Origin: an uncultured Candidatus Saccharibacteria bacterium
GTDB lineage: Bacteria > Patescibacteriota > Minisyncoccia > Phycocordibacterales > Phycocordibacteraceae
Direction of reading: 5' to 3'
Assembly (NCBI GenBank): GCA_964391975.1
Contig: CAYMNZ010000001.1
Location: forward strand, 262,978 to 326,977
Length of the DNA: 64,000 nucleotides
Shown here in pieces: positions 15,440 to 50,033 of the stretch. Under the pieces are notes generated by a model. The model was not told the DNA's origin. It saw nothing but the letters and a program-made list of their open reading frames with translations, and did not search any database. How positions within the stretch are numbered: the stretch's first letter is position 1; the number at the start of each line of letters is the position of its first letter. A program made the translations under genes and the position numbers.

Positions 15440-15440
15440 A

Positions 15441-15470: not shown

Positions 15471-15490
15471 CGTAACCTCTGTAGAGAGGG

Positions 15491-15916: not shown

Positions 15917-15965
15917 AATTGGCACAGAATATCAAGGATTACGACCACGTGATACTCTTTTGGGT

Positions 15966-16277: not shown

Positions 16278-16278
16278 G

Positions 16279-16352: not shown

Positions 16353-16399
16353 GAGAGGCAACGATACCAAAGGAGGGCACCAAATGCTACGCTAGTTGA

Positions 16400-16978: not shown

Positions 16979-16981
16979 TGG

Positions 16982-17052
16982 TCGGGCCGCCGGGAATCGA
17001 ACCCGGTCAGTCTGCTCCCAAAGCAGATGTACTACCGGTATACTACGGCCCG
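16982..17052 (-). tRNA. tRNA-Pro (anticodon UGG)
   Basis: Near-identical paralogue of the Pro-CGG gene. Only the anticodon arm differs (loop TTTGGGA). Confidence 0.85.
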
Positions 17053-17134
17053 ATTCGGTGGAGAATAGCAGATTGAATCGATTAAGGATATATACTAGTC
17101 TCAGACTCAACTGGGCATTCTCCTCGAGTCCATT

Positions 17135-17617: not shown

Positions 17618-17629
17618 CATTCTTCTAAC

Positions 17630-17703
17630 GGGCCCATAGTAAAACGGTATTACGCATCCATGGCATGGATGAAGTCGGGGTTCGATTCCCCGTGGGTCCA
17701 CCA
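17630..17703 (+). tRNA. tRNA-Ala (anticodon GGC), CCA encoded
   Basis: G3:U70 pair, anticodon loop ATGGCAT, T-loop TTCGATT and a genomically encoded CCA. Confidence 0.85.
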
Positions 17704-31439: not shown

Positions 31440-31491
31440 GGCCTAGACTTGCGCTCTTTGGCGCTTCGTGGTATAAATTAGAACACAAAAC

Positions 31492-32568: not shown

Positions 32569-32577
32569 ACTGCACAA

Positions 32578-32599
32578 CCGCCCGGAGGGGCGGTTTTTT
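32578..32599 (+). terminator. intrinsic terminator
   Basis: CCGCCC-GGAG-GGGCGG hairpin followed by TTTTTT. Confidence 0.65.
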
Positions 32600-32616
32600 C
32601 TTGCTATACTTGCCGC

Positions 32617-33966: not shown

Positions 33967-33972
33967 AGGCGC

Positions 33973-34971
33973 ATGCGTTCTATCTTTGACTATCTCTGCG
34001 CAGCCTTTGAGCTTCATTGCGCGCGGATGCGCTATGTCTACGGAACACTCCTTCTGGCGCTTATGGTGGGTGGGATTGCAGTGTGGTACTTCCTGCTTCT
34101 GCCACCGTCCCCATTTCCAGTGGGAACAATCATTGAAATCGAAGAGAACTCCTCACTCTATGAGGTGGCCCAGGAACTTAAGAGTGGAGGCTATATCGAG
34201 TCAGAGATTGCCTTTCTTGCACTCATGCGGCTTACCGGTCGTGAGAACAGTGTGCAGGCAGGTCTCTATGTGTTCAAGCAACCCTATGGACTCTTAACCA
34301 TCGCCGATAGGCTTGCCCGGGGCGTCTCAGGTGTGCCGACGGTTCGCATTCGCATACAGGAAGGGCAGACGGCTCGAGAGGTTGGAGAACAGCTCTCAGC
34401 CAAGATTGAAGGGTTTGATATTGCGACCTTTGATCCGAAGGCCCGTGCGCTTGAGGGGTACCTATTCCCGGACACCTACGAGATTCTTCCGGACGAGACA
34501 CCTGACGAGATACTCGAGCGTTTCTACGAGACGTTCCTAAGGCGCACTGAAGGCATCGAAGAGGAGATTGTCGCATTCGACCATCCGCTCCGAGATGTGC
34601 TTACGATGGCCTCGCTTATCGAGCGCGAGGCCCGTGGTCTTTCTGAGAAGCGTATGGTCTCCGGGGTTCTTTGGAACCGCATTGAGATTGGCATGCCACT
34701 TCAGGTGGATGCGGTGTTTGGGTATATAAAAGATACGCAAACCTACAGCCCTTCTTTTGATGACTTGGAGATAGAGTCGCCTTACAACACGTATCGCAAC
34801 AAGGGACTTCCGCCGGGACCAATTGCCAACCCTGGTGTGAATTCTATTCTTGCTGCGGTGACACCTACTGAAACTGAGTATCTCTATTACCTCACCGGTC
34901 GCGATGGGAAGATGTATTACGCGGAGACCTTCGAAGAGCACAAGGCAAACAGGGCAAGGTATCTTGATTAG
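33973..34971 (+). CDS. mltG: endolytic murein transglycosylase MltG (YceG family)
   Basis: N-terminal TM helix and the YceG core (LPPGPIANPG...YLYY). Confidence 0.8.
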   Translation: MRSIFDYLCAAFELHCARMRYVYGTLLLALMVGGIAVWYFLLLPPSPFPVGTIIEIEENSSLYEVAQELKSGGYIESEIAFLALMRLTGRENSVQAGLYVFKQPYGLLTIADRLARGVSGVPTVRIRIQEGQTAREVGEQLSAKIEGFDIATFDPKARALEGYLFPDTYEILPDETPDEILERFYETFLRRTEGIEEEIVAFDHPLRDVLTMASLIEREARGLSEKRMVSGVLWNRIEIGMPLQVDAVFGYIKDTQTYSPSFDDLEIESPYNTYRNKGLPPGPIANPGVNSILAAVTPTETEYLYYLTGRDGKMYYAETFEEHKANRARYLD

Positions 34972-34985
34972 GCTATACTTTTTGT

Positions 34986-35246
34986 ATGACAGAAGAACGT
35001 CCAGTGAGGCAGAACGAGGACACGGTAGAGCAGGTTACTGCCAAGATTGCCCGGAATGCGGGGGAAGTTGAAGCTATTAAGGACACGCTTGCAGGACGAG
35101 CAGCAGCCCGAAGGGAGTTCAGCAGGCAAGGCAGGGGAGCGCTGGAACCACACCCTCTCGATAGTTACGGTCTGCCGGGTAGGCTCAGGCTACTTGAAAG
35201 TGAGCAAAAGAGGTTGGCTGAACGGAAAAAGGAGCTCGAGGGCTAG
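34986..35246 (+). CDS. small hypothetical protein
   Basis: 86 aa ORF. Weak. Confidence 0.25.
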   Translation: MTEERPVRQNEDTVEQVTAKIARNAGEVEAIKDTLAGRAAARREFSRQGRGALEPHPLDSYGLPGRLRLLESEQKRLAERKKELEG

Positions 35247-35254
35247 TATGCTGA

Positions 35255-35285
35255 TTAAGCCTTTTTAAGGTATACTTAGGCTTAG
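35255..35285 (+). promoter_or_regulatory. imperfect inverted repeat overlapping a TATACT -10 box upstream of purL
   Basis: TTAAGCCT-N14-TAGGCTTAG flanks TATACT (35271-35276). Lies 19 nt before the purL ATG. Confidence 0.3.
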
Positions 35286-35303
35286 CAATAGCGACTGATA
35301 CGC

Positions 35304-38243: not shown

Positions 38244-39010
38244 AAAAACCACGCATACTCATATTCTCGGGCTACGGTCTCAACTGCGAAGACGAAGCAA
38301 AGATTGCCTTTGAGGAGGTAGGCGGTGTCGCTGACATCGTGCACTTGGAGGACATCATTGCGAAACCTTCGATGTTGAAGAAATATCAGATTATTGTGTT
38401 CCCTGGAGGATTCTCCTATGGAGATGATGCTGGTTCAGGGAAAGCGTACGGAAAACGTGTTGCTCACCACCTTAAAAAAGAACTTCAGGAGTTCCTTTCC
38501 CGCGATACGCTCATGGCAGGTATCTGCAATGGATTCCAGGTCATCACGAGCGCTGGTATTCTCCCGGGAGCACTCATCGCCAACGATTCAGCTAAGCTTA
38601 TCTGCCGTTGGGTAGACATGGAGGTAGTTGGAGATTCTCCCTGGTTGACTGGCATCAAGACGCTCTCAGTTCCAATTGGACACGGCGAGGGTAAGTACTT
38701 CGACACCGAGAAGAATCTTGATGCGCTCGAGAAGGCTGGGCGGGTAGTGCTTAAATACAGCAAGGGAAAGATGGCGAAGTGCTTTAGTCTGCCAGGTAAC
38801 CCGAATGGTTCTCTTCGAGATATTGCTGGTATTACTGGGTACGAGGGACGGGTTATCGGACTGATGCCACACCCAGAACGCGGAAGCTTCTTTACCCAGC
38901 AGCCGCACTGGACCTACCTTCGCGAGAAGTACGAGCGGGAGGGGAAGAAGCTTCCGAAGTACGCAGAGGGCATCGAGGTGTTCCGGAATGCCGTTAATTA
39001 CTTCAAATAG
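38240..39010 (+). CDS. purQ: phosphoribosylformylglycinamidine synthase glutaminase subunit
   Basis: Class I GATase with GICNGFQ. Confidence 0.9.
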   Translation: MKKPRILIFSGYGLNCEDEAKIAFEEVGGVADIVHLEDIIAKPSMLKKYQIIVFPGGFSYGDDAGSGKAYGKRVAHHLKKELQEFLSRDTLMAGICNGFQVITSAGILPGALIANDSAKLICRWVDMEVVGDSPWLTGIKTLSVPIGHGEGKYFDTEKNLDALEKAGRVVLKYSKGKMAKCFSLPGNPNGSLRDIAGITGYEGRVIGLMPHPERGSFFTQQPHWTYLREKYEREGKKLPKYAEGIEVFRNAVNYFK

Positions 39011-39011
39011 T

Positions 39012-39836
39012 ATGAATCTTCTCGACTCAATCGCAGCATCCCGAAAGCTCGCGACGGAGTCGATGCGTCAGACACTGTCAATTCTCCCTGGTTCGACAGA
39101 AATTGAGTTCAAAGACGCACTTCTTGCCAACCTTCGTTCGCACAAGGAATTCTATCCTTCGGGTTGGTACGCTCCTCCTCCCGATGGAGTGTGTGTACTT
39201 TTTGACAACCAACCTTTCACTCGACTTCAGTTCGATACTATTCGAGACGAGAAGTACTGGCCAGGAGATTCAAGGTTCAGTTCGGAATCCGTCGGCATCG
39301 TCTATTGTTCTCCGGTGAATATGAAGACAAGCATGATTGGCGACACTGGCCTAACTCTCTATACCGGGGAGAATCTTGAGATTCAGGCACATATCCGAAA
39401 CTGTTACGACGCGATGCTTGCCGCTGCAGACCTTGCGCAGGTTGGAATGCGTTTCAACGACCTTTACACGCTAGCTATGAAAACATTCGTTGATCACGGA
39501 CTTACTATCGGTTGGATGACCACGGAACACGATGCCACTAAGGGCGTCAACCTTGGGCATACCATTCCGGGCTCATACGGGGAACCGCTTCCGTCCGGGG
39601 ACTTCGAGGAAACCAAAGAAGCAATACGGAGCCGACGGATCTATATAAATCCTGTCGAACTCTTTGAGATTCCGGAGACCTGCGCCTTCACCTTCGAGTC
39701 CCGCCTTACCGATATGAGTCTTACCCAGCCAAACGTGTTCTTCCACATGGTGGTTTCTTTCTCGGGCGGGGAGAGGAAAACCATCACTGGATTTGATGGT
39801 ATATTCGGTGATATAGGAATGAAATACATGCTATGA
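39012..39836 (+). CDS. hypothetical protein embedded in the pur operon
   Basis: Start moved to the ATG 2 nt after the purQ stop. No recognisable domain. Confidence 0.4.
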   Translation: MNLLDSIAASRKLATESMRQTLSILPGSTEIEFKDALLANLRSHKEFYPSGWYAPPPDGVCVLFDNQPFTRLQFDTIRDEKYWPGDSRFSSESVGIVYCSPVNMKTSMIGDTGLTLYTGENLEIQAHIRNCYDAMLAAADLAQVGMRFNDLYTLAMKTFVDHGLTIGWMTTEHDATKGVNLGHTIPGSYGEPLPSGDFEETKEAIRSRRIYINPVELFEIPETCAFTFESRLTDMSLTQPNVFFHMVVSFSGGERKTITGFDGIFGDIGMKYML

Positions 39837-40357
39837 AAACACTAGTTGGGATTCTCATGGGCTCAGATTCAGACCTTCCGGTCATGCAGGACGCGGTTAA
39901 GGTTTTGGGTGAATTTGGTATCGGCTGCGAAGTACACACCCTCTCAGCACACCGTACGCCTGAGGCGGTTGTTTCCTACGTTGAGGAAAGCGAGAAGGCG
40001 GGTTACAAGGCCTTTATCTGTGCAGCAGGAGGTGCAGCACACCTTGCAGGAGTCGTAGCTGCTCATACCGCGCTTCCAGTCATCGGCGTACCGATTGCCA
40101 ACAAGACTACCGGGGGTATCGATGCCCTGTACTCGACCGTTCAGATGCCTCCTGGCATTCCCGTTGCGACCGTCGCAATCAATGGGGCCAAGAACGCAGG
40201 TATCCTCGCCGCCCAGATAATCGGTTCAGGAGATGATGACATGCGCGCTAAGGTTACGGCTTACAAGGAGAAGATGGCCAAAGACATCACAGCTAAGGAC
40301 CGCGAGCTCCAAGAGAAAGGTGTTGAACAGTATCTGAAGGACAAAGGTCTTGTATGA
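39833..40357 (+). CDS. purE: N5-carboxyaminoimidazole ribonucleotide mutase
   Basis: GSDSDLPVM and the PurE fold. Confidence 0.9.
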   Translation: MKTLVGILMGSDSDLPVMQDAVKVLGEFGIGCEVHTLSAHRTPEAVVSYVEESEKAGYKAFICAAGGAAHLAGVVAAHTALPVIGVPIANKTTGGIDALYSTVQMPPGIPVATVAINGAKNAGILAAQIIGSGDDDMRAKVTAYKEKMAKDITAKDRELQEKGVEQYLKDKGLV

Positions 40358-41472
40358 ACGATAAGAGCGCCTACGCAAAAGCTGGTGTTGATTACACCGT
40401 CATGGAGCCATTCAAGATGGCCATGGTTGACGCAGGTAAGCGTACGCTCACGTTCCCGAACAAACGCGGCGTCTTTATTAACGAGGACGCGATGCATGCT
40501 CATGGCGCAGTGTTCGAATACCGCGGTGAGACTCCCCATATATGGTGCAAGACTCATGAGGATCTTGGTAACAAGAACTGGATAGCGGAGTGGATGTACG
40601 AACGGACAGGTAAGTCCTACTACGATGCCATAGGGATCGACACAGCACTTATCGTCGTAAACGATGTCATCGCACAAGGCGCACTTCCGGTCGTATTCAA
40701 CGATCAGCTTGAAGCAAGCGACAGTTCCTGGTACGGGGACGAAAAGCGTGCGAAGGACCTTGCTGCTGGATTCCTTAAGATCTGCGAAGAAGTTGGTATG
40801 GCGCTTCCTGCCGGAGAATCCGCGAGCGTGAAATACATCGTCAACCCACGGCCGCCTGTGAAGCAGATTGCAACGCTTTCCGGTTCGGTGACCGGCATCG
40901 TGGCACCCAAGGAGCGGCTCGTGACGGGTCGTAAGCTTGCGGCAGGTGACCACATCATCGCCGTAGCGTCTTCAGGCCTCCATGCAAACGGTATCTCTCT
41001 CGTGATTCAAAAGGCGATGGAGTTGCCGGAGGAGTTCCTGACCAAGCTTCCAAGTGGAACTACTATTGGGGACGAAGCGCTCATTCCTACGCGTTCCTAC
41101 GTCGCCTTAGTTGAAAGCTTGCTTGATGCGGGAGTGGACATTCATGCACTTCTTCCTGGAACCGGTGACGCAATAGGAAAAATCGCCTTCGATAAGCGGC
41201 CATACACGTACCGGATTCATTCTTGGCTTCCGATTCCTCCGCTCTTTACGTACTACCGAGAAGCGCTCGGAGTTGAAATCAGGGATTGCCTTAAGACCTT
41301 TAACTGGGGAGCGGGTTACTACGTCTTCGCACCAGCTAATGAGGTCGAGCGGATCCTTTCGATTGGTAAGGCTGCTGGATACGATCTAATGGATGTCGGT
41401 ACTGTTGAGGATGGCAAACGGGAAGTGATTTTTGGACCAGAGAATATTACACTTCCTCCACCGGGGGAATAA
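40354..41472 (+). CDS. purM: phosphoribosylformylglycinamidine cyclo-ligase (AIR synthase)
   Basis: YAKAGVD N-terminus, GLHANG motif and PurM-like N- and C-domains. Confidence 0.75.
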   Translation: MNDKSAYAKAGVDYTVMEPFKMAMVDAGKRTLTFPNKRGVFINEDAMHAHGAVFEYRGETPHIWCKTHEDLGNKNWIAEWMYERTGKSYYDAIGIDTALIVVNDVIAQGALPVVFNDQLEASDSSWYGDEKRAKDLAAGFLKICEEVGMALPAGESASVKYIVNPRPPVKQIATLSGSVTGIVAPKERLVTGRKLAAGDHIIAVASSGLHANGISLVIQKAMELPEEFLTKLPSGTTIGDEALIPTRSYVALVESLLDAGVDIHALLPGTGDAIGKIAFDKRPYTYRIHSWLPIPPLFTYYREALGVEIRDCLKTFNWGAGYYVFAPANEVERILSIGKAAGYDLMDVGTVEDGKREVIFGPENITLPPPGE

Positions 41473-41486
41473 TATAGAATTAACGT

Positions 41487-42368
41487 ATGGATGAACTCAA
41501 AAAAGGAACACTGCTAAACGAAGGAAAGACCAAAAAGATTTTTGCGGTCGAAGGTAACCCAACGCGGGTTATCGTTGAATACAAGAATGCAATTACTGCG
41601 TTTGATGACCCTTCCTTTACTCAGGAATTCGCTACTAAGGCGAAGTATTCCAATACCACTACCTCTCGCGCGTTTGAGCTTCTGAATGCTGCTGGAGTAC
41701 CAACTTCCTACGTGCGACAACTCAATGATACTGATTTCCTTGCGCTTTCCTGCCAGATGATTCCGCTTGAGGTGGTAGCTCGCCGGTATGCATTTGGAAG
41801 TTATCTGAAGCGCATGCCAGAGTTTGCAGTGGCAGAAGGGCAGCCACCCCACCGCTTCGACCCACCAGTCGTTGAGTTCTTCCTCAAGACCACTAAAGGG
41901 GGCTTGAGCGACAACGAAGGGAACGTGCTTGTTGAAGGACTCGATCCACTCAAGGGCGAGGAGGATCCATTCATTGAGAATCCGAAGGAGAGCCAGTGGC
42001 GCCTCATGCATCCAAAGACACCAGGCGCTGACCAAGCAGCTTCACTCAATCGCACCATTGATGCATCCCGCGTGCTCGGTCCTGCAACGATTGAAGAGAT
42101 GGAAGCAGCTACCGTACAGACCCTTCTCACACTTGAAGCATTCTTTGCCAAGCATGACTTCAAGCTCATTGATTTCAAGATTGAGTTTGGTCTCACCACA
42201 GACAACAAAGTGGTAGTTTCAGACGTTATTGATAATGATAGCTGGCGCCTCAGAGACCAGAACTGGAAAGACGTAAGCAAGCAGTCATTCCGCGATGGTG
42301 AAGCAATGTCTTCGATTGAAGACAAATACGCGCAGGTAGCCGCACTTATGGAGACGTCAAAATCATGA
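41487..42368 (+). CDS. purC: SAICAR synthetase
   Basis: GKTKKIF and the PurC ATP-binding pattern. Confidence 0.88.
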   Translation: MDELKKGTLLNEGKTKKIFAVEGNPTRVIVEYKNAITAFDDPSFTQEFATKAKYSNTTTSRAFELLNAAGVPTSYVRQLNDTDFLALSCQMIPLEVVARRYAFGSYLKRMPEFAVAEGQPPHRFDPPVVEFFLKTTKGGLSDNEGNVLVEGLDPLKGEEDPFIENPKESQWRLMHPKTPGADQAASLNRTIDASRVLGPATIEEMEAATVQTLLTLEAFFAKHDFKLIDFKIEFGLTTDNKVVVSDVIDNDSWRLRDQNWKDVSKQSFRDGEAMSSIEDKYAQVAALMETSKS

Positions 42369-43753
42369 AGGAACTTACCGCGATAAGCCCGCTTGATGGC
42401 CGCTACTCGGGAAGTGTTTCTGAACTCTCTCCCTTAGTGAGTGAATACGGCCTCATCCGCTATCGCGTGTTTGTTGAGTGCGAATACTTCAAAGCACTTG
42501 CAAAGGTTCCGGAGCTCGGCTTCACTCTTTCGAAAGAGGAGATTGCACTCATTGACGGCATAGCTAATGCAACAGAGGAAGATGCGGCAGTTGTGAAGCA
42601 GATTGAGACTGCCGGCTACGAAGGCATCCCAGCTACCCGCCACGATGTAAAAGCAGTGGAGTACCTCATTAAAGGGAAACTCAAGGGCACGTCTCTTGAA
42701 GCAAAGAGCGAATGGGTGCATTTCGGACTTACGTCTGAGGATGTAAACAACCTCTCCTATGCGCTCATGATTTCGGATTCTCTAGAGCGCGTGCTCGCAC
42801 CTAGAATTGAAACGATTCTCTTTGAATTGAATCGCATGGCACAGTCGCATGCATCAGTTTCAATGCTCGCTCGAACGCATGGTCAGCCTGCAACTCCCAC
42901 AACCTTTGGAAAGGAAATGAAGGTCTTTGCTGCACGCATTGAGCGTAGACTCGCTGGCCTCAAGAGCATTAAGATTCAGGCAAAGCTCAACGGAGCATCA
43001 GGGAACTGGAACGCACACGTGGTTGCGTTTCCTTCGGTTGATTGGACGAAGTTCACGACTCAATTTATTGAGGGCTTTAATACAGGCCGTACCTACGGAC
43101 TTGAGGCGAACCTCTACACCACGCAGATTGAATGCCACGACAGCTATGTGGCGGTCTTTGATACCTTGAGACGAGTTAACACCATCCTTATAGGTTTTGA
43201 TCAAGATATTTGGCGCTATGTTTCAGACGGCTGGATTACGCAGGTAGCAAAGGCTGGAGAGATTGGCTCGTCCGCTATGCCACACAAGGTTAACCCCATT
43301 GATTTTGAAAATAGCGAAGGGAACTTGGGGGTAGCCAATGCACTCTTTGAACACTTTGCCCGCAAGCTTCCTATTTCTCGCCTCCAGCGAGACCTTTCTG
43401 ATTCCACAGTGGAGCGTAACTTTGGTGTGGCGTTTGCCCACACACTCATGGGCTACGAATCCATTCTTAAAGGCCTCGCCCGCATTGAGCCTGATGCTGC
43501 AAAGATACGAGTCGCTCTTGATGAGCACCCAGAGGTCCTTGCTGAGGCTATACAGACCGTACTGCGTCGTGAAGGACAGGCTGGTGCCTACGAGAAGCTT
43601 AAAGAGCTTACGCGCGGTGCGTCTCTCACCATTGATGACATTCGCACCTTTATTTGGGAGCTCCCGCTTTCAGAGAAGGTGAAGAACGAGCTTATTGCGC
43701 TTACGCCCGCCTCCTACATCGGACTCGCTGAGAAACTAGCCCGAGGCGAGTAA
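42365..43753 (+). CDS. purB: adenylosuccinate lyase
   Basis: ISPLDGRY N-terminus and fumarate-lyase signature region GSSAMPHKVNP. Confidence 0.9.
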   Translation: MKELTAISPLDGRYSGSVSELSPLVSEYGLIRYRVFVECEYFKALAKVPELGFTLSKEEIALIDGIANATEEDAAVVKQIETAGYEGIPATRHDVKAVEYLIKGKLKGTSLEAKSEWVHFGLTSEDVNNLSYALMISDSLERVLAPRIETILFELNRMAQSHASVSMLARTHGQPATPTTFGKEMKVFAARIERRLAGLKSIKIQAKLNGASGNWNAHVVAFPSVDWTKFTTQFIEGFNTGRTYGLEANLYTTQIECHDSYVAVFDTLRRVNTILIGFDQDIWRYVSDGWITQVAKAGEIGSSAMPHKVNPIDFENSEGNLGVANALFEHFARKLPISRLQRDLSDSTVERNFGVAFAHTLMGYESILKGLARIEPDAAKIRVALDEHPEVLAEAIQTVLRREGQAGAYEKLKELTRGASLTIDDIRTFIWELPLSEKVKNELIALTPASYIGLAEKLARGE

Positions 43754-43772
43754 GCTGGGGTATAGTCGTTCA

Positions 43773-44792
43773 ATGAACGTATTCGTCGGCCTCTCAGGCG
43801 GCGTGGACTCCGCTGTTTCTGCAGCTCTTTTGAAGAAAGAGGGGCACGCAGTTACCGGTGTATTTATTAAGGGATGGTACCCACCGGGGCTTGCCTGCAC
43901 CTGGGCCGAGGACCGTAGAGACGCAATGCGGGTTGCGGCAAAGCTCCGTGTTCCGTTTGTAACACTTGATGCTTCGAGCGAATACAAGAAGGGTGTTATT
44001 GATTACTTGCTTGCTGAATACGAGGCGGGGAGGACACCCAATCCGGATGTTATGTGCAACCGGGACGTGAAGTTCGGTGCGTTTTACGAGTTTGCTCGCA
44101 AAGAAGGAGCGGACATGATTGCCACTGGGCACTATGCGAGGGCACAGGACAGAAAACTCTACCGTGGCGTTGACCCCGCCAAGGACCAAAGCTATTTCCT
44201 CTGGGCGATATCCAGGGACGCACTTGCCCACACATTATTTCCGCTTGGGGGATTCAAGAAGGAGAAGACACGCGAGCTGGCACGGAAGTTTGCACTTCCG
44301 GTGGCAACAAAGCGAGATAGTCAGGGCATCTGTTTTCTTGGAAGCATTTCAGTTGAGGAATTCTTGCGTTCTGAGTTTGGAGAGGCACCAGGTACTGCGG
44401 TCGATGAGAGCGGAAAAGAAATAGGAGGGCACAACGGTGCTTTGCTCCATACGATTGGAGAACGAGTATCGCTTAGAGAAGCACCTTCCGGTCCTTGGTA
44501 TGTGGTGCGTAAGAGCGTAAAAGAGAACCTTCTGGTGGTTGCTAAGGAACGCAGGACAAAGGTTCTGACCAAATCCATCCCGTTCTCAGGACCGAATTGG
44601 CTTACCGATGATATTCCTGATGGAAAACTCGTAGCGCAATATCGCTATCATGGTTCGGTGATTGAAGGGACACTTAATGCAACCGGGACGGCGTTTCTTC
44701 CTACACATCCGCTCCCTGACGCGCTTGCGAACGGGCAGTCGCTTGTGTTCTACCGAGGAGAGGAGTGTCTTGGGGGTGGTATCATTGGGTAA
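43773..44792 (+). CDS. mnmA: tRNA 2-thiouridine(34) synthase MnmA
   Basis: PP-loop GLSGGVDS and the MnmA fold. Confidence 0.88.
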   Translation: MNVFVGLSGGVDSAVSAALLKKEGHAVTGVFIKGWYPPGLACTWAEDRRDAMRVAAKLRVPFVTLDASSEYKKGVIDYLLAEYEAGRTPNPDVMCNRDVKFGAFYEFARKEGADMIATGHYARAQDRKLYRGVDPAKDQSYFLWAISRDALAHTLFPLGGFKKEKTRELARKFALPVATKRDSQGICFLGSISVEEFLRSEFGEAPGTAVDESGKEIGGHNGALLHTIGERVSLREAPSGPWYVVRKSVKENLLVVAKERRTKVLTKSIPFSGPNWLTDDIPDGKLVAQYRYHGSVIEGTLNATGTAFLPTHPLPDALANGQSLVFYRGEECLGGGIIG

Positions 44793-44794
44793 AT

Positions 44795-45181
44795 ATGCGC
44801 GTTGCAGTATCCATTGCGCTCAGTGTTTTTGTACTCATTGGTGTAGCGTATCTGGCGCTGCATGTTGAGTCTTCAATTGCAAAAGACGAGTACGTAAAGG
44901 TGGAGGCGCCACAGGTTACGCTTCTAAGCGACTACGACGAAGGAATCCACACCATTGCTGGGTCACTCCGGGTGCCAACTCCCTGCACGCCGGTTTCTGC
45001 AGCCTCTGTCCTTACTGCAGACGGCACCATACGTGTAGACGTCACCGTTGGTGAAGACACAGATATCTGCCTTATGCGTGCGACCGAGAAGGAATTTTCC
45101 GTAGATTTTGAGGCGCCTGAAGAGGCTACTATCGCAGTGTATGTAAACGAAGCGAAGGCAGTTATCGTTGAAATCCTATGA
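44795..45181 (+). CDS. hypothetical membrane-anchored protein
   Basis: Start moved to the internal Met to avoid overlap with mnmA. N-terminal TM helix. Confidence 0.35.
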   Translation: MRVAVSIALSVFVLIGVAYLALHVESSIAKDEYVKVEAPQVTLLSDYDEGIHTIAGSLRVPTPCTPVSAASVLTADGTIRVDVTVGEDTDICLMRATEKEFSVDFEAPEEATIAVYVNEAKAVIVEIL

Positions 45182-46008
45182 CGGACATTGTTAAAGCAGA
45201 CGGCACCACAGAGTCTTTTGATGGAGTGAAGCTCGAGGCGTCGTTACGGCGTGTCGGAGCAGGTGACCACACTGCCAAACGCATTCGACAGACGATCCAG
45301 GATTCTATTGCGCCAGCTTCAACGACTGATGAAATTTACCGACGGGCTATCACTATGCTTAAGCACGAGGCGAGGCCTGCGGCAGCACGCTACAGTCTTC
45401 GTCGAGCGCTCTTTGAGTTTGGTCCTTCGGGACATCCCTTTGAAGACTTCGTCGCAGAGATATTCAAGAGTGAGGGATGGGAAGTGGAGTGGAGGAAACT
45501 GGTGCCAGGAAAATGCGTGATGCACGAGGTGGATGTCTATGCGCATCGTAACGGCGAAAACCTTGCTGCTGAGCTTAAGTATCACAATGACCCTTCGTAC
45601 AAGACTGATGTGAAGGTCGCCCTCTATGTGAAGGCACGTTTTGACGATATTTCAGCTGCGAGCGCGGCAGATGGAACCACTGCACGTATTGATAAAGGCT
45701 ACCTCATCACCAATACCAAGTTCACCGACCAAGCTATTCAGTTCGCACGGTGCGCCAATATCGGTCTTATGGGCTGGAGCTACCCAACTGAAGGGAACCT
45801 TTATGACCGTATTATCGCCTCTGGCATCTACCCGGTGACCGCCCTTATGAGCCTTCGTAAGGCTGAGAAGAAGCTCCTTATCGACCGAGGCATCGTGACC
45901 TGTAACCAGTTGCGCGAGTCTCGCGACCAGCTGCGCACCCTTATGATTCCGCCCGAGCGCATTGGGGGGATAGTGGCTGAACTAGAGGTGCTCTGCGCTC
46001 CTGTATAA
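45178..46008 (+). CDS. ATP-cone domain protein fused to an Mrr-like (PD-(D/E)xK) restriction endonuclease domain
   Basis: The N-terminus IVKADGTTESFDGVKL...RYSLRRAL fits the ATP-cone. The C-terminus FEDFVAEIFKSEGWEV...VDVYA...AAELKY fits the Mrr catalytic core (D...ELK). Confidence 0.6.
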   Translation: MTDIVKADGTTESFDGVKLEASLRRVGAGDHTAKRIRQTIQDSIAPASTTDEIYRRAITMLKHEARPAAARYSLRRALFEFGPSGHPFEDFVAEIFKSEGWEVEWRKLVPGKCVMHEVDVYAHRNGENLAAELKYHNDPSYKTDVKVALYVKARFDDISAASAADGTTARIDKGYLITNTKFTDQAIQFARCANIGLMGWSYPTEGNLYDRIIASGIYPVTALMSLRKAEKKLLIDRGIVTCNQLRESRDQLRTLMIPPERIGGIVAELEVLCAPV

Positions 46009-46016
46009 TAGGGCGT

Positions 46017-46799
46017 ATGGCTTGGAAATCCCCTACGTTTGACCCGAAAGCAAAAGAGCCGTTTAAGATAAGCCGCTCCAAGATTGATATGTTCACCGAG
46101 TGCCCTCGGTGTTCGTATTTAGACTTGCGACTTGGTGTGAAGCGCCCCAGCATGCCGTCCTTTACCCTCAACAATGCGGTGGACGAGCTCTTTAAGCGTG
46201 AGTTTGATATCAACCGCGCTGACGCAACTACGCATCCGCTCATGAAGGAGTACGGGGTTGATGCAGTTCCGTTTCAGGACCCACGCATGGAAGAGTGGCG
46301 CGATGCGCTTCGTCGCGGTATCGCCACCCACCATGAGCCCTCCAACTTCTATGTGCGTGGAGGTATCGACGATGTGTGGATTAATCCAGCAGGGGAACTC
46401 ATTATCGTCGATTACAAAGCGACCTCTAAACAAAAAGGTCCATCCTCTGTTGATGACCTCTACGATTCCTATAAGAAACAGATGGAGGTGTACCAGTGGC
46501 TCTTTAAGCAAAATGGTTTCAAGGTCTCTCCGACCGGCTACTTCGTCTACGCCAACGGTAAATCCGACATGAAAGCCTTTGATGCAAAGCTTGAGTTCGA
46601 TATCTGCCTCATTGCGTACACTGGGGATGATTCATGGGTTGAACCAACACTTATCCGTATGCGGGAGACGCTTTCGAGTGACGAGATTCCTCCTGTCGGC
46701 ATTTCCTTTGGTGGTGGTCCCTGCGAGTTCTGCACCTACCGAGACGCAGCTGGGAAGATTTTGCTCCAACTCCATACCGCCAACAAGAAAAAGAAGTGA
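46017..46799 (+). CDS. Cas4/RecB-like PD-(D/E)xK nuclease with four Cys (putative Fe-S or Zn site)
   Basis: GGIDDV...IIVDYKAT...QMEVYQWLF (QhxxY motif). N-terminal CPRC and C-terminal CEFC cysteine pairs. Confidence 0.6.
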   Translation: MAWKSPTFDPKAKEPFKISRSKIDMFTECPRCSYLDLRLGVKRPSMPSFTLNNAVDELFKREFDINRADATTHPLMKEYGVDAVPFQDPRMEEWRDALRRGIATHHEPSNFYVRGGIDDVWINPAGELIIVDYKATSKQKGPSSVDDLYDSYKKQMEVYQWLFKQNGFKVSPTGYFVYANGKSDMKAFDAKLEFDICLIAYTGDDSWVEPTLIRMRETLSSDEIPPVGISFGGGPCEFCTYRDAAGKILLQLHTANKKKK

Positions 46800-46818
46800 T
46801 TTGGTATACTGTGCGTAT

Positions 46819-47076
46819 ATGAAAACAGTGTTTACCGGACGGGTACAATCCATCGTTCGCAACATTAAAAAGGGAAAAACCATGACCTATGGTCAGGTCG
46901 CAGCGGCCGCAGGAAAGCCAGGAGCAGCACGAGCAGTTGGCACTATCATGAAGAACAACACGGATAAGGAGATGCCGTGCCATCGTGTGGTGCGTGCAGA
47001 CGGAAAGGCGACTGGGTACAACGGCATCAATGGTCCAAGCCGTGAGGAGCTTCTACGTCGCGAAGGCGCACTCTAA
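46819..47076 (+). CDS. MGMT-family DNA-binding/methyltransferase domain protein (stand-alone C-terminal domain)
   Basis: YGQVA...PGAARAVG...PCHRVV is the O6-alkylguanine alkyltransferase active-site region. Start moved to ATG 46819, giving 85 aa. Confidence 0.6.
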   Translation: MKTVFTGRVQSIVRNIKKGKTMTYGQVAAAAGKPGAARAVGTIMKNNTDKEMPCHRVVRADGKATGYNGINGPSREELLRREGAL

Positions 47077-47079
47077 CCT

Positions 47080-47394
47080 ATGAGTAACCGGGAGCGGAGG
47101 ATACAAGAAATCGCCAACGCCAAAGGTCGCGAAGAGTACAAACTCTGGAGCTCTCCTTCTGGACTTCTGGTGAAGGTCTCTTCAATTGCTGGAGGGAGGT
47201 TCGAACACGTTGTAAATCGTGTCATCGCAGAATCTCCCGACGGCGCTAAGCTTCCGCATACAGGAAAAGATACGCTCTACTACCCACCAAAAACACTGAA
47301 TCTCATTCTCAGGGAGATTTTGAACGAATCGATTCCTCCCAAGAACCGACAGAACATTGAGATTTTTCTTACAGAAAAAGGAGAGCCACTGTAA
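47080..47394 (+). CDS. hypothetical protein
   Basis: 104 aa ORF packed between the MGMT-like gene and ung. Confidence 0.35.
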   Translation: MSNRERRIQEIANAKGREEYKLWSSPSGLLVKVSSIAGGRFEHVVNRVIAESPDGAKLPHTGKDTLYYPPKTLNLILREILNESIPPKNRQNIEIFLTEKGEPL

Positions 47395-47396
47395 GC

Positions 47397-48065
47397 ATGG
47401 AAGTTACGATTGAGCCGTCGTGGAAGGAGAAACTTAAAGAAGAGTTTACTAAACCCTACTTCGCCGAGTTGCGCACGTTTGTGCGAGAAGCCTACACGTC
47501 GAGAACTATTTACCCTGCACCGAAGAATGTGTTCCGGGCCTTCGACCTCACTCCCTTTGAAAAGGTGAAAGTCGTCATTCTTGGCCAAGACCCTTACCAC
47601 GGACCTAAGCAGGCAATTGGACTTTCTTTTGCGGTGTCTGAAGGAGTGCGCAATCCTCCGTCACTGCAGAATATCTTTAAAGAAGTTGCAGCAGACTTGG
47701 GGAAGCCGCTCGTACATACGGACGGAGACCTTGGCCGTTGGGCAGAACAGGGAGTGTTGCTTTTAAACGCTACCTTGACCGTCGAGGCACAGCGAGCGGG
47801 TTCTCATCAAGGACGAGGTTGGGAGCAGTTTACCGATGCGGTCATTCGAAAACTTTCAGAAGAGCGCGAACACCTCGTGTTCATCCTCTGGGGCAACTAC
47901 GCCAAGGCAAAAGGTGCACACATCGATAGAGAAAAGCATCTGGTTATTGAATCCCCGCACCCATCTCCATTTGCAGCACACGGAGGATTCTTTGGTAGCA
48001 AGCCGTTTAGCAAGGCGAACGCGTACCTTGTTGCACATGGGCAGGAACCCATCAATTGGCTCTAG
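47397..48065 (+). CDS. ung: uracil-DNA glycosylase (family 1)
   Basis: GQDPYH water-activating motif and the HPSPF-like C-terminal motif. Confidence 0.9.
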   Translation: MEVTIEPSWKEKLKEEFTKPYFAELRTFVREAYTSRTIYPAPKNVFRAFDLTPFEKVKVVILGQDPYHGPKQAIGLSFAVSEGVRNPPSLQNIFKEVAADLGKPLVHTDGDLGRWAEQGVLLLNATLTVEAQRAGSHQGRGWEQFTDAVIRKLSEEREHLVFILWGNYAKAKGAHIDREKHLVIESPHPSPFAAHGGFFGSKPFSKANAYLVAHGQEPINWL

Positions 48066-50033
48066 CTACCAAATGCGAGCACGGTCCTTAGAAGCTCGGA
48101 AGAGACCGTCGCCTTTCTCGACATCAAAGGCAGTGTAGAAGTCATCGATGTTTGAGAGCGGTCCATTGATGCGGAACTTTGCAGGGGAGTGCGGGTCCGT
48201 AAGTGCCGCTGTCTTCTGAAAGGCGGGGCGTGCATTCTCCCTATCAAAGAGCGTGACACCCAGGAAGAAGCGTTGCTCGGGGGTATAGCCACCGATAACC
48301 TTCCAGCCTGTTTTCTTGAGACGGAGCTTATAAGCGTCAAAGGAGATAGCGATGCCGCCGAGGTCCGCAATATTCTCGCCGAGGGTTAACTTGCCGTTGA
48401 CTTTCACCCCATCAGCAACGCTGTAGCGGTTGAACTGGTCGACGAGTAGTTTGGATTTCTTCTCAAAGCGAGCACGGTCTTTCTTGGTCCACCAGCTCTT
48501 AAGGTTGCCTTTCTCGTCATACTTGGAGCCCTGGTCATCAAAGCCGTGGGTAATTTCATGACCGATAACTGAACCAATGGAGCCGTAGTTAACCGCGTCA
48601 TCTGCTTTTGGGTCAAAGAAGGGTGGCTGGAGAATGGCGGCAGGGAAGGCGATGTCGTTGAGGTTGGGGGCGAAGTAGGCGTTCACCGTCTGTGGGAACA
48701 TGAACCATTCAGTGCGGTCAATCGGCTTGGTGAGCTTGCGCATCTCGCGCTTGTGCACGAATTCAGAGACTCGTAGCAGGTTACCTACGTATTCATTCGG
48801 TAGCACAGAAAGACCCTTATAACTCTTCCACTTGTCAGGGTAGCCAATCTTGCGGTTAAGTGCGCGAAGCTTAATGAGTGCCTTCTTCTTCGTTGCAGGG
48901 CTCATCCAGTCGAGGTTCTTAAGCCGTGCTTTGTAGGCGGTAAAGAGGTCATCAACGAGGATATTCATCTTTCGCTTTGCCACAGGACTGAAGTGCTTCT
49001 TTACGTAGATGCGACCAAGGAGCTCACCTAGATTTCCGTTGACGCAGCCGAGTACCTGGCGCCACAAAGGCTTCATGACCTTCATGCCGGAAAGCACCGT
49101 GCCATAGAAGGCAAAGTTCTGCTTAACAAAAGGTTCTGAGAGAGCACCTGCGAAATCGTTGAGCACATGCCAGGTGAAGTACGTGCGCCAGTCTTCAATA
49201 GGAACCGTGACGAGCATTTTACCAACCGCCTTGAGAAACTGCGGCTGCATGGCGATAACGGCCTTTGTGTTCTTTGCATCAAGGCGCTCTAGGTACTCTT
49301 TCCAGACTATCTGCGGGGCGAGTTTCTGAAGTGCTCCAAGTGTTTTCTTGTGATAGACCTTGTCGGCGTCCCTGCGGTCGACCTTGGTCATGGAGACCTT
49401 AGCCAGTTCCGTCTCAATGCGCATCACTGTTGCCGCTGCTTTTGCTGCGGGCTTTGGAGCAAGGCCTGCAAGTTGGAACATGGAAGTTACATGCGGTACG
49501 TATTTCTCCCGCACTCGCTTTGATTCTGTGTCGTCCTTGAGGTAGTAGTCGCGGTCGGGCATGCCAAGACCATCCTGGAAGAGGTGGATGATGTAGCGCT
49601 CGCTATCCTTTGAGTCCTGGTCTATGCCAGCACCGAAGAGTACGCCAACTCCTACACGATGGAGCTTGGCCATGGTGCGGAGCAGGTCTTCCTTTGTTTG
49701 CATGAACTTCACTTCTGCGAGCAGGGAAGCCAGAGGGGCGAGTCCAATGGCATTGCGATGCTTCTGGTCCATGCCGGAGCGATAGAAGTCCCGAATCATT
49801 TGCTCAGGGGAGCCCTTGGGGAGTGAGCGCTTCTTAAGAAGGCCTTCGAGTATGGCTTTGAGCTTCTTTTCCGTGTCGTAGCGGAGAATCATGAAGCTGC
49901 CCCAGCGTGCCTCTTCTTTAGGAATCGGGTTGCGCTCGAGCCAACCGCCAGAGGCGTGTTGGTAGAAGTCGTCTTGTGGACGTGTTTTTGGGTCTAAATC
50001 CTTAGAATTAAAGCCCCAGTTTCTTGAACTCAT
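48066..50033 (-). CDS. pepO: M13 family zinc metallopeptidase (PepO/neprilysin-like)
   Basis: HEITHGFD (HExxH) and an ENIAD-like second motif. 655 aa. Confidence 0.9.
   Translation of the reverse strand: MSSRNWGFNSKDLDPKTRPQDDFYQHASGGWLERNPIPKEEARWGSFMILRYDTEKKLKAILEGLLKKRSLPKGSPEQMIRDFYRSGMDQKHRNAIGLAPLASLLAEVKFMQTKEDLLRTMAKLHRVGVGVLFGAGIDQDSKDSERYIIHLFQDGLGMPDRDYYLKDDTESKRVREKYVPHVTSMFQLAGLAPKPAAKAAATVMRIETELAKVSMTKVDRRDADKVYHKKTLGALQKLAPQIVWKEYLERLDAKNTKAVIAMQPQFLKAVGKMLVTVPIEDWRTYFTWHVLNDFAGALSEPFVKQNFAFYGTVLSGMKVMKPLWRQVLGCVNGNLGELLGRIYVKKHFSPVAKRKMNILVDDLFTAYKARLKNLDWMSPATKKKALIKLRALNRKIGYPDKWKSYKGLSVLPNEYVGNLLRVSEFVHKREMRKLTKPIDRTEWFMFPQTVNAYFAPNLNDIAFPAAILQPPFFDPKADDAVNYGSIGSVIGHEITHGFDDQGSKYDEKGNLKSWWTKKDRARFEKKSKLLVDQFNRYSVADGVKVNGKLTLGENIADLGGIAISFDAYKLRLKKTGWKVIGGYTPEQRFFLGVTLFDRENARPAFQKTAALTDPHSPAKFRINGPLSNIDDFYTAFDVEKGDGLFRASKDRARIW

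Follow-up and report, generated by a model that had tools for sequence, protein, structure and literature searches.

A putative ATP-cone nuclease and its Cas4-like and repair-gene neighbors are probably encoded in a conserved housekeeping run of Patescibacteria

Mrr of Escherichia coli is a Type IV modification-dependent restriction endonuclease with a PD-(D/E)xK core (Mrr_cat) and a winged-helix reader domain (Mrr_N). An Mrr_cat core is also found in AF1548 of Archaeoglobus fulgidus (PDB 1Y88; Mrr_cat PF04471 plus AF1548-like_C PF22357), which was crystallized as a 199-residue construct. Its catalytic D/E/K triad has been predicted (PMC1821046), and its role as a restriction endonuclease is a prediction only. 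Cas4 proteins usually contain one N-terminal and three C-terminal cysteines (PMC3466216), and solo-Cas4 proteins encoded outside CRISPR loci are a recognized class (PMC12501428, PMC12538437). The AMP/nucleoside pathway, in which AMP phosphorylase, ribose-1,5-bisphosphate isomerase, and form III RuBisCO salvage AMP by way of pentose bisphosphates, is common to Archaea and CPR bacteria (PMC5113843, PMC6389311).

We analyzed 64,000 nucleotides (the window) of contig CAYMNZ010000001.1 from an uncultured Candidatus Saccharibacteria bacterium. A preliminary description had reported a compact cluster of five co-directional genes encoding an ATP-cone-Mrr fusion (gene 1), a Cas4-like nuclease, an MGMT domain, a 104-aa protein, and UNG. 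All five ORFs are present as reported, with the domains named (Table 1), and are separated by 8, 19, 3, and 2 nt. They belong to a co-directional run that spans ~29004 to 48065, beyond the five genes, so the close spacing characterizes the genome in general rather than a five-gene cluster. We think it probable that the five genes make up the compacted distal end of a ~13-kb housekeeping run, vertically conserved in Paceibacteria-type Patescibacteria (CPR), and not a dedicated repair or defence system, that each product acts alone, and that gene 1 encodes an adenine-nucleotide-gated nuclease of turnover or salvage.

Table 1. Features of the locus, in window coordinates.
Feature	Coordinates	Strand	Details
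mnmA (tRNA 2-thiouridylase)	43773..44792	+	Pfam tRNA_Me_trans 6.2e-70
Small ORF, N-terminal transmembrane segment	44795..45181	+	128 aa from ATG; 138 aa from GTG at 44765
Gene 1: ATP-cone (~aa 1-80), Mrr-type PD-(D/E)xK core (~aa 84-198), AF1548-like HhH-like C-terminal domain (~aa 216-272)	45178..46008	+	276 aa; AF1548 (PDB 1Y88) ortholog
Stand-alone RecB/Cas4-superfamily nuclease	46017..46799	+	260 aa; PDDEXK_1 E 4.5e-10; TIGR00372 cas4 27 bits (cutoff 65)
O6-alkylguanine-DNA alkyltransferase (MGMT), C-terminal domain only	46819..47076	+	85 aa; DNA_binding_1 9e-25; TIGR00589 69.5 bits (cutoff 46.4)
104-aa ORF	47080..47394	+	Variable slot, no conserved block member
ung (family-1 uracil-DNA glycosylase)	47397..48065	+	NF003589 319.6 bits (cutoff 223); TIGR00628 271.9 bits
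M13 metallopeptidase	48066..50033	-	Peptidase_M13_N 2.3e-125; convergent with ung; downstream end of conserved block

We found that gene 1 contains both domains of the proposed fusion and a third, the AF1548-like C-terminal domain, that had been missed. The Mrr_cat match passes the Pfam cutoff (29.7 bits; cutoff 21). The ATP-cone match is slightly below its cutoff (23.6 bits; cutoff 25.8), and the cone is supported by a homolog that passes Pfam (the AF1548 ortholog, 50 bits) and by profile matches to the cones of NrdD, NrdR, and NrdA. Structure prediction, which the preliminary description had suggested, gave a model (pLDDT 93) whose cone superposes on NrdR and RNR cones in Foldseek (1.9-2.9 A over ~80 residues). 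The AF1548 ortholog gave weak matches to HHH_5 (0.016) and Hjc (0.0026), and NusA (HhH)2 domains matched at E ~0.6. Some sources label homologs of gene 1 'Holliday junction resolvase'.

Judged by its sequence, gene 1 is a member of an ancient three-domain family found in Archaea, in Patescibacteria, and in a small number of other bacteria. The family comprises ~397 clusters at 50% identity (E<=1e-30) and spans Archaea and bacteria; gene 1 has >4700 close homologs and is 57-97% identical across 80 related species. Residues K6 and K18 of the cone, the catalytic residues E117, D119, E132, and K134, and H136, N179, and T180 are invariant across Archaea and Patescibacteria. The Paceibacteria cone reads KADG instead of the usual K-R-D-G (Ala replaces the Arg after the first Lys), so nucleotide binding by this cone is not certain.

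The genes are syntenic in 80 related species-level genomes; a lack of synteny would have counted against the preliminary description. The conserved order is leuS, sigma-like, DUF8128, yceG, mnmA, (small membrane ORF), ATP-cone nuclease, Cas4-like, (MGMT), UNG, M13 peptidase, alaS. However, the nuclease and repair genes are not alone in this conservation, which covers the unrelated mnmA, yceG, sigma-like, leuS, M13 peptidase, and alaS genes equally. The most persistent neighbor of gene 1 is mnmA, which is upstream in 79 of the 80 genomes, directly (<60 nt) in 51, and also lies upstream in 6/8 bacterial loci at 34-45% identity. The Cas4-like gene is downstream in 74 loci and directly adjacent in 52, UNG is present in 72, MGMT in 34, and the 104-aa ORF in 2; the M13 peptidase was found in 48/80 loci, a count limited by flank length, and in L092. 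Median identity among relatives is 66.5% for the ATP-cone nuclease, compared to 62.9% for mnmA and 71.2% for UNG, indicating that gene 1 is conserved like its housekeeping neighbors. Conservation also continues beyond mnmA on the upstream side and beyond the peptidase on the downstream side; long-range synteny is thus compatible both with co-regulation of the repair genes and with its absence.

MgtC or other genes separate the two nuclease genes in 18/80 loci and in all deeper lineages. Lineages at 43-45% identity keep the long block, with MgtC between the ATP-cone nuclease and Cas4-like genes and with PCMT and HD_4 between MGMT and UDG, and they retain the order Cas4-like, MGMT, (PCMT), UDG. 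Three loci (L048, L049, and L060) have lost the Cas4-like gene and kept the rest of the block.

The Cas4-like motifs that had been reported are real and are conserved in 74 relatives (C29xxC32, D119, D132-Y-K134, Q155xxxY159, and C236xxC239). The best structural matches to an AF2 model of the protein (pLDDT 87) were SSO0001 Cas4, AdnAB, MGME1, Exo5, and AddB. As had been stated, there are no cas genes (cas1/cas2 included) near it, nor a CRISPR array within the window. The protein most likely works on its own as a RecB-family nuclease carrying a metal or Fe-S staple, and DNA-end processing is its probable function. The MGMT gene, which starts at ATG 46819, encodes the active-site region alone, with the PCHRV motif, as described; it also occurs in L085 and L090-L092, all distant loci, and would be a minimal suicide alkyltransferase. 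UNG, with its GQDPYH and HPSPF motifs, would remove uracil.

Two small ORFs had no family match in Pfam, NCBIfam, PADLOC, or PHROGs. The 104-aa ORF was found only in the nearest relatives, L003 and L004 (52% identity), and in the closest relative, L002, an unrelated 119-aa ORF fills its slot; it is probably lineage-specific filler. The small membrane ORF is part of the same gene string, and its stop overlaps the start of gene 1 (ATGA). A tblastn search detected relatives in 23/80 loci and gave weak matches in the distant L086, L088, and L089; the ORF is missing wherever mnmA directly abuts the nuclease gene. The mnmA gene lies outside the coordinates of the preliminary description.

Outside the clade, the archaeal and other bacterial orthologs of gene 1 had no Cas4-like, UNG, or MGMT neighbor in the loci examined. 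Four archaeal orthologs are in unrelated, housekeeping contexts, and other contexts are mixed (DnaA/PilB, GluRS/Tag glycosylase, and deoxyhypusine synthase). Plasmids of Pontibacter and Criblamydia (two phyla) carry an operon-like cassette of the ATP-cone nuclease, a beta-CASP MBL nuclease, an archaeal-type thymidine/AMP-phosphorylase family protein (NF003338, 668 bits), and a ribose-phosphate diphosphokinase subfamily protein (NF005537, 404 bits); in Criblamydia the stop and start codons overlap. The cassette is also present in 7 metagenome loci and contiguous in 5. A Bathyarchaeia locus encodes ribose-1,5-bisphosphate isomerase (TIGR00511, 419 bits), AMP phosphorylase (TIGR03327, 617 bits), and then the ATP-cone nuclease, with an 11-nt overlap. 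The cassette is limited to one bacterial subclade, the archaeal salvage linkage to one locus, and no salvage cassette or pathway genes were found in the window or in any of the 80 Paceibacteria loci.

These salvage-gene contexts suggest that gene 1 encodes an adenine-nucleotide-gated nuclease that functions in nucleic-acid turnover or salvage. It is plausible that the protein acts alone as a nucleotide-gated nuclease, as independent contexts tie its family to nucleotide salvage. To our knowledge, no nuclease has been described as a component of the AMP salvage pathway, so the link of gene 1 to it is one of gene context. A literature search found no publication linking an ATP-cone to an Mrr-type nuclease or to AMP phosphorylase. 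As in ribonucleotide reductases and NrdR, ATP or dATP bound to the cone could alter how the protein oligomerizes or how its domains pack, and thereby switch a metal-dependent, non-sequence-specific endonuclease held on nucleic acid by the HhH-like domain. The likely role would be nucleic-acid turnover whose products enter nucleotide or pentose-bisphosphate salvage, and the main alternative is DNA repair.

In that alternative, gene 1 would encode a nucleotide-regulated, structure- or damage-specific repair or recombination nuclease (core plus HhH, cf. Hjc and XPF/Mus81-type enzymes), co-expressed with neighboring genome-maintenance genes. We consider this unlikely, but it has several observations in its favor: the invariant catalytic core joined to an HhH-like domain, the HHH_5 and Hjc matches and the resolvase name given to homologs, the nearby UNG and MGMT genes, and the order from Cas4-like to UDG that persists in deeper lineages. 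A Tag 3-methyladenine glycosylase is encoded two genes downstream in L136, L138, and L144, which belong to another lineage, and, with UNG and MGMT here, could point to a genuine link with repair. Yet the HhH and Hjc similarities are sub-significant, mnmA is a steadier neighbor than every repair gene, the Cas4-like gene can be lost while the rest is kept, and archaeal, Bacteroidota, and Chlamydiota loci and several other bacterial contexts contain no repair neighbors. The same losses and interruptions, the sporadic MGMT and 104-aa genes, the lack of such partners outside the clade, and the equal synteny of unrelated genes make it improbable that the five genes are one module, as had been proposed, in which the two nucleases work together to degrade or repair DNA under control of the nucleotide pool. 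The 2-19 nt spacers in the window and the frequent position of the Cas4-like gene after gene 1 would fit such a module.

The preliminary description had given equal weight to defence. Anti-phage activity of the cluster, or of gene 1 alone, as a Type IV (Mrr-like) restriction enzyme or solo-Cas4-based system would be consistent with an Mrr_cat fold typical of restriction enzymes, with the two plasmid-borne orthologs, and with PADLOC matches to the ZorD nuclease domain (0.0055), PDC-S02 (0.0057), and Cas4 models (1e-7). However, these matches are at noise level or are generic Cas4 matches far under the family cutoff, and the plasmid copies are in a metabolic cassette whose other members have no PADLOC matches. 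Gene 1 is core-like in its abundance and in its fixed position among housekeeping genes, GC content and composition are uniform, the Mrr_N methyl-DNA reader and the cas1/cas2 genes and CRISPR array are absent, and a search of 50,697 phage records gave no match to gene 1. We therefore regard defence as highly improbable. It is just as hard to sustain that gene 1 encodes an NrdR-like, nucleotide-sensing regulator, non-enzymatic in vivo, in which the nuclease fold and the HhH domain serve solely for DNA binding. The architecture parallels that of NrdR (DNA-binding module plus ATP-cone), and the cones superpose, but E117, D119, E132, and K134 are retained as an active-site pattern in Archaea and bacteria, and there was no conserved operator-like context or RNR neighborhood among ~150 loci.

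Gene 1 is close to AF1548. Residues 91-270 align with AF1548 (E 1.8e-25; 6.4e-76 when the family profile is used), superposition of the model on 1Y88 gives a TM of 0.79 (normalized to the target), and the predicted triad corresponds to D119, E132, and K134. Unlike gene 1, the crystallized construct has no ATP-cone; archaeal proteins of ~265 aa that are near-identical or related to AF1548 do have one. Gene 1 and E. coli Mrr have the core in common, but in gene 1 an ATP-cone replaces Mrr_N, an HhH-like domain is added at the C terminus, and the distribution is that of a core gene rather than of a patchy defence-island gene. The cone has the N-terminal signature V-x-K-x-x-G-x-x-E-x-F-x-x-x-K-[IL] of RNR and NrdR cones, but its fusion partner is a nuclease, where theirs is a reductase or zinc ribbon. 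The Cas4-like protein shares the RecB motifs (D, DxK, QxxxY) with Cas4, solo-Cas4, and AddB-type proteins (SSO0001, PDB 4IC1), but its four conserved cysteines flank the core 2+2 (CxxC ... CxxC). Finally, the gene 1 family resembles the AMP/pentose-bisphosphate salvage pathway in its Archaea-plus-CPR distribution, and its orthologs are operon-linked to AMP-phosphorylase-family genes in the Bathyarchaeia locus and in the bacterial cassette.

The preliminary description of this region recorded five co-directional ORFs and suggested that they may be a nucleotide-pool-gated module or a defence system. Translation bore out the five ORFs at 45178-48065 as described, and we refer to them as genes 1 to 5 (see table). 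The spacers between them are 8, 19, 3, and 2 nt. Genes on the plus strand run unbroken from ~29004 to 48065, so tight co-directional packing is the style of this genome and does not set the five genes apart. GC content is level throughout the region. Promoter and terminator counts across 43.5-48.5 kb were not above those in shuffled sequences, and the scan gave no operon boundaries. The stop codon of a small membrane ORF overlaps the start codon of gene 1 (ATGA); judged from the sequence, this ORF is translationally coupled to the predicted-cytoplasmic ATP-cone nuclease. Elsewhere in the window, a tandem repeat (17376-17501; period 21/42 nt, about 3-6 copies, 66-79% matches) probably lies within a coding region, and five tRNA genes (Ala-TGC, Pro-CGG, Val-CAC, Pro-TGG, and Ala-GGC) lie on both strands within 4.3 kb (13474-17703).

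Coordinates of the genes, gene clusters, and cassettes discussed in the text
Feature	Located in	Coordinates	Strand	Description
yceG	window	33973-34971	+	leuS side of purine cluster
Purine-biosynthesis cluster	window	35304-43753	+	between yceG and mnmA
mnmA	window	43773-44792	+	upstream of small membrane ORF
Small membrane ORF	window	44795-45181	+	N-terminal transmembrane helix (translation)
Gene 1	window	45178-46008	+	276 aa; Mrr_cat above cutoff, ATP-cone just below (Pfam)
Gene 2	window	46017-46799	+	260 aa; PDDEXK_1, E 4.5e-10 (Pfam)
Gene 3 (MGMT)	window	ATG at 46819, ends 47076	+	85 aa; DNA_binding_1, 9e-25; PCHRV
Gene 4	window	47080-47394	+	104 aa; no match in Pfam, NCBIfam, PADLOC, or PHROGs
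Gene 5 (ung)	window	47397-48065	+	family-1 UNG; NF003589, 319.6 bits (cutoff 223)
Cassette, L093	Pontibacter actiniarum plasmid NZ_CP021236.1	1972-6597		four-gene cassette headed by gene 1 ortholog
Cassette, L094	Criblamydia sequanensis plasmid NZ_LK031773.1	6995-11602		four-gene cassette headed by gene 1 ortholog
L083	Bathyarchaeia JAWCHK010000003.1	3463-6873		ribose-1,5-bisphosphate isomerase, AMP phosphorylase, ATP-cone nuclease

We found that the five genes belong to a much longer conserved block. We scanned GTDB at one genome per species and obtained 438 loci with a relative of gene 1, of which we analyzed the best 80; L-numbers denote loci throughout. By tblastn, mnmA was upstream of gene 1 in 79 of these 80 loci, directly so in 51, and in 24 of the 80 a gap of ~400 nt between the two genes holds the small membrane ORF. 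The Cas4-like gene (gene 2 in the window) was downstream of gene 1 in 74 of the best 80 loci (52 direct), with a gap of at least 150 nt, room for an inserted gene, in 18 of the 80. UNG was found in 72/80 and MGMT in 34/80. A convergent M13 peptidase was found in 48/80, a count bounded by the length of the flanks. Three loci (L048, L049, and L060) retain UNG and have no Cas4-like gene. Clustering of the ORFs in the 80 loci gave the common order leuS, a Sigma70_r4/HARE-HTH protein, a DUF8128-like protein, yceG, mnmA, and gene 1, followed by the Cas4-like gene, MGMT where present, UNG, either an opposite-strand M13 peptidase or an M16 pair, and alaS. Loci with 43-45% identity have the same long order, with MgtC (and DUF7282) between gene 1 and the Cas4-like gene and PCMT between MGMT and UDG, then HD_4. 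On shorter contigs at 34-42% identity, mnmA, the small ORF, and gene 1 are still together. Weakly similar forms of the small membrane ORF occur in distant lineages in addition to the roughly 24 of the best 80 loci, and the ORF seems to be ancestral and to have been lost repeatedly.

Median identities across the 80 loci were 66.5% for gene 1, 62.9% for mnmA, 71.2% for UNG, and 53.7% for the Cas4-like protein. The value for gene 1 is near those for mnmA and UNG, indicating that gene 1 is as constrained as its housekeeping neighbors. Synteny in relatives holds in 80 species, and we reject chance adjacency, but the synteny is not specific to the nuclease and repair genes because housekeeping genes are equally conserved. 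The five genes form the compacted end of a housekeeping block that is long and vertically inherited, and conservation of that block says nothing specific about cooperation among them. The partnership of Cas4-like, UNG, and MGMT genes is absent outside one clade. For these reasons the notion of a five-gene functional module is not supported. There is nothing out of the ordinary in the cluster as such; it shows that a gene order preserved in streamlined CPR genomes can look like a functional module.

Patescibacteria seldom carry genes for de novo purine synthesis. In the window, the leuS-side genes (29004-34971) are followed by a purine cluster that encodes a purL-like FGAR-AT, a purQ-like GATase_5, an M24-like ORF, purE (AIRC), a purM-like AIRS protein, purC, and purB. 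In distant relatives and in over 70 related genomes, mnmA comes immediately or almost immediately after yceG. The purine cluster thus looks like an insertion of ~8.8 kb, common only to the window and loci L001-L004.

All of the best 80 of the 438 loci have Patescibacteria-type content regardless of how the records are labelled. One (L032; JBLNCF010000009.1) is labelled 'Bacillota bacterium' and contains the Paceibacteria-type block at 60-75% protein identity. Dozens of loci labelled 'uncultured Candidatus Saccharibacteria' (many CAY*/CAZ*) contain the same block at 60-75% protein identity. The mismatch points to mis-binning or to coarse taxonomic labels.

Gene 2 encodes a solo nuclease of the RecB/Cas4 superfamily in which the arrangement of the cysteines is unusual. 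Both features noted in the preliminary description are conserved in 74 relatives: the RecB motifs (D119, D132-Y-K134, and Q155xxxY159) and the four cysteines (C29xxC32 ... C236xxC239). The best NCBIfam match is cas4 (TIGR00372), at 27.1 bits against a cutoff of 65. Cas4 and AddB-type proteins have one N-terminal and three C-terminal cysteines as ligands of an Fe-S cluster (PMC3466216); gene 2, in contrast, has two and two (CxxC...CxxC), and its metal could be Fe-S or Zn. The predicted structure (pLDDT 87) matches SSO0001 Cas4, AdnAB, MGME1, Exo5, and AddB with modest TM-scores. Close homologs number in the thousands in Patescibacteria under the NCBI name 'PD-(D/E)XK nuclease family protein'. 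As first noted, the 64 kb window contains no CRISPR array; nor do cas genes occur among the neighbors in the window or in the best 80 of 438 loci. We therefore reject an association with CRISPR; solo-Cas4 proteins, encoded outside CRISPR loci, already form a recognized class (PMC12501428).

The assignments of the remaining genes also stood. The short MGMT protein of gene 3 matches PF01035 (9e-25) and TIGR00589 (69.5 vs a cutoff of 46.4), with PCHRV in its translation, and is the alkyltransferase C-terminal domain by itself. It has no N-terminal Ogt-type domain, it falls far below the cutoffs of full-length equivalogs (NF007626, 57.9 vs 192), and relatives carry the same short form (85-94 aa). 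Gene 5 is UNG at the equivalog level, with NF003589 and TIGR00628 (271.9 vs 185.75) both above cutoff and the GQDPYH and HPSP motifs present. Gene 4 remained without a family assignment in the four databases searched. It is present in 2 of the best 80 of 438 loci (L003 and L004), and is a lineage-specific insertion. In L002, the closest relative with the region, an unrelated 119-aa ORF (7896-8255) lies between MGMT and UNG. This slot is a hotspot of small-gene turnover: even nearly identical genomes differ in the small ORF that fills it, and the ORFs are unrelated. We favor the view that UNG, the minimal MGMT, and the solo Cas4-like nuclease are maintenance enzymes that act independently. All component families of the cluster are already in databases.

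What remains of interest is gene 1, as a slowly evolving, predicted nucleotide-sensing nuclease with a link to a salvage cassette. The proposed fusion of an ATP-cone to an Mrr-type nuclease proved correct but incomplete: both domains are present, and there is a third, AF1548-like domain at the C-terminus that had gone unmentioned. Mrr_cat scored 29.7 bits (cutoff 21). The ATP-cone (PF03477) scored 23.6 bits in gene 1, just under the cutoff of 25.8, and homologs pass; P0241, an archaeal ortholog of Archaeoglobus fulgidus AF1548, scored 50.1 bits for the cone, 40 bits for Mrr_cat, and 93 bits for AF1548-like_C. Residues 91-270 of gene 1, including residues 200-270, align with AF1548 (PDB 1Y88) at E 1.8e-25, and the gene 1 family profile spans 90-273 at E 6.4e-76. 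A direct Pfam search of the isolated segment gave a weak match to AF1548-like_C (PF22357; E 0.091), and close homologs have a precomputed PF22357 match. Gene 1 thus combines the Mrr_cat core with its D...ExK triad, the AF1548-like domain, and the ATP-cone.

The signature residues of gene 1 are intact. Across 35 aligned sequences (15 from Patescibacteria and 20 from Archaea), the cone residues K6 and K18 and the nuclease-core residues E117, D119, E132, K134, H136, N179, and T180 are invariant. D119, E132, and K134 match by spacing the catalytic residues predicted for AF1548 (PMC1821046). An AlphaFold model built on these 35 sequences was confident (pLDDT 93, pTM 0.87). Foldseek matched it to 1Y88, then to the nuclease domains of MspJI, Can2, and Cdn1, and after these to the ATP-cones of NrdR, NrdB, NrdD, and NrdA (1.9-2.9 A over about 80 residues). 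Cones of NrdD, NrdR, and NrdA are likewise within reach of the family profile, and the V-x-K-x-x-G-x-x-E-x-F-x-x-x-K-I signature lines up. The C-terminal domain has weak similarity of the HhH type (HHH_5 at 0.016; NusA (HhH)2 domains at E about 0.6).

The three-domain architecture is already annotated, as 'ATP cone domain-containing protein' or 'restriction endonuclease'. When 1.84 billion representatives were searched exhaustively with HMMER, the family comprised 397 clusters at 50% identity (E<=1e-30), with nearly all members 270-290 aa. AF1548 (1Y88) is a structural-genomics protein, and its crystal structure, available since 2004, covers two of the three domains. The crystallized chain (199 residues) lacks the ATP-cone, whereas archaeal homologs of ~265 aa found in an AF1548-seeded search, 99% identical as well as more distantly related, carry the ATP-cone, Mrr_cat, and AF1548-like_C. 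An internal start codon was probably taken as the beginning of the deposited AF1548 ORF. The family was placed under Mrr_cat in a survey of PD-(D/E)XK nucleases (PMC3424549), and the GOS analysis predicted AF1548 to be a restriction endonuclease (PMC1821046). Our search of open-access papers for AF1548, 1Y88, or an ATP-cone with nuclease, Mrr, or AMP phosphorylase found no functional study.

We found that the defence reading is not supported. PADLOC-DB 2.0 gave weak domain-level matches for gene 1 (E about 0.005), generic Cas4 matches for gene 2, and none for MGMT, the 104-aa ORF, or UNG; matches for six window proteins and four cassette proteins (below) were at noise level or generic. Gene 1 had no match in PHROGs, and tblastn against 50,697 phage records found no ortholog. 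Type IV restriction enzyme Mrr has an N-terminal Mrr_N winged helix, which reads modified DNA. In contrast, gene 1 has no match to Mrr_N and begins with the ATP-cone. Unlike defence genes, with their patchy, island-like distribution, gene 1 evolves slowly, keeps a fixed place within a run of housekeeping genes in 80 species, and lies in a region of uniform GC content. We therefore reject a defence system.

Outside the Paceibacteria-type block, gene 1 orthologs have other neighbors. We saw neighborhoods in about 150 loci, in a family of ~400 clusters at 50% identity. Four archaeal loci (Geoglobus, Ferroglobus, Bathyarchaeia, and Aenigmarchaeota) have four different housekeeping contexts, none with a Cas4-like, UNG, or MGMT gene. 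In L139-L151, DnaA, the gene 1 ortholog, a PilB/T2SSE-like ATPase, and leuS adjoin, a context that may be near the replication origin. In L136, L138, and L144 the order is GluRS, the ortholog, an ORF, and Tag 3-methyladenine glycosylase, and in L122-L132 the neighbors are deoxyhypusine synthase and agmatinase.

On two plasmids, from hosts in different phyla, the ortholog heads a four-gene string of the same composition. Both orthologs are full-length and were recovered by tblastn against plasmids, one in Pontibacter actiniarum (40.6% identity) and the other in Criblamydia sequanensis (32.5%). The second gene encodes an MBL-fold protein with Beta-Casp and RMMBL domains, the third an archaeal-type member of the thymidine/AMP-phosphorylase family (NF003338, 668 bits; AMP_phos, 480 bits, below the cutoff of 535), and the fourth a ribose-phosphate diphosphokinase (NF005537, 404 bits). 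Stop and start codons overlap in the Criblamydia cassette. With the Pontibacter and Criblamydia proteins as seeds, a metagenome scan gave 58 loci, and the closest seven (L095-L101; 56-61% identity) carry the cassette, contiguous in five and with a P-type ATPase inserted in two. The cassette is often near P-type cation ATPases. We found no description of it in open-access papers. In the Bathyarchaeia locus (L083), the AMP phosphorylase gene overlaps the ATP-cone nuclease ortholog by 11 nt. The pair immediately upstream, ribose-1,5-bisphosphate isomerase (TIGR00511, 419 bits vs 314) and then AMP phosphorylase (TIGR03327, 617 bits vs 535), comprises two enzymes of the archaeal AMP/pentose-bisphosphate pathway, which is common to Archaea and CPR bacteria (PMC5113843, PMC6389311). 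Neither the window nor any of the 80 Paceibacteria loci (best 80 of 438) contains a gene of this pathway.

From two independent gene-context associations, we infer that the role of gene 1 is nucleic-acid turnover that feeds salvage. In RNRs and NrdR, adenine nucleotides act through the cone on oligomerization or domain arrangement; by analogy, the cone of gene 1 would bind adenine nucleotides and gate the nuclease by oligomerization or domain rearrangement. The fullest form of the proposal, in which an adenine-nucleotide-gated nuclease, gene 1, opens a route of nucleic-acid catabolism and salvage, is tentative and in our estimate rather unlikely. The ATP-cone/Mrr/HhH protein would cut DNA or RNA when the ATP/dATP signal permits, the beta-CASP exonuclease, where present, would trim the fragments to mononucleotides, and enzymes of the AMP-phosphorylase family would pass these into ribose-1,5-bisphosphate or PRPP metabolism. 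The main alternative is that gene 1 is a nucleotide-regulated repair or recombination nuclease, consistent with the HhH-like C-terminal tail and with the repair genes that lie near it in two lineages.

If the salvage proposal is correct, gene 1 would control, almost universally in reduced-genome Patescibacteria and in many Archaea, how nucleotides are supplied from nucleic acid that is scavenged or the cell's own. Such a cone-gated nuclease would bear on how symbiotic, biosynthetically poor organisms obtain nucleotides. Gene 1 is also notable in its own right: it evolves slowly at a fixed position in Paceibacteria-type genomes, it has orthologs in many archaeal phyla, and, by sequence, its catalytic and nucleotide-binding signatures are intact. 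The cassette in cultured Pontibacter actiniarum is a tractable experimental handle. To our knowledge, the only role understood so far for ATP-cones is the regulation of deoxyribonucleotide synthesis, in RNRs and NrdR. The cone of gene 1 would be the first shown to control a nuclease, and it would carry the regulatory logic of deoxyribonucleotide synthesis over to nucleic-acid breakdown.
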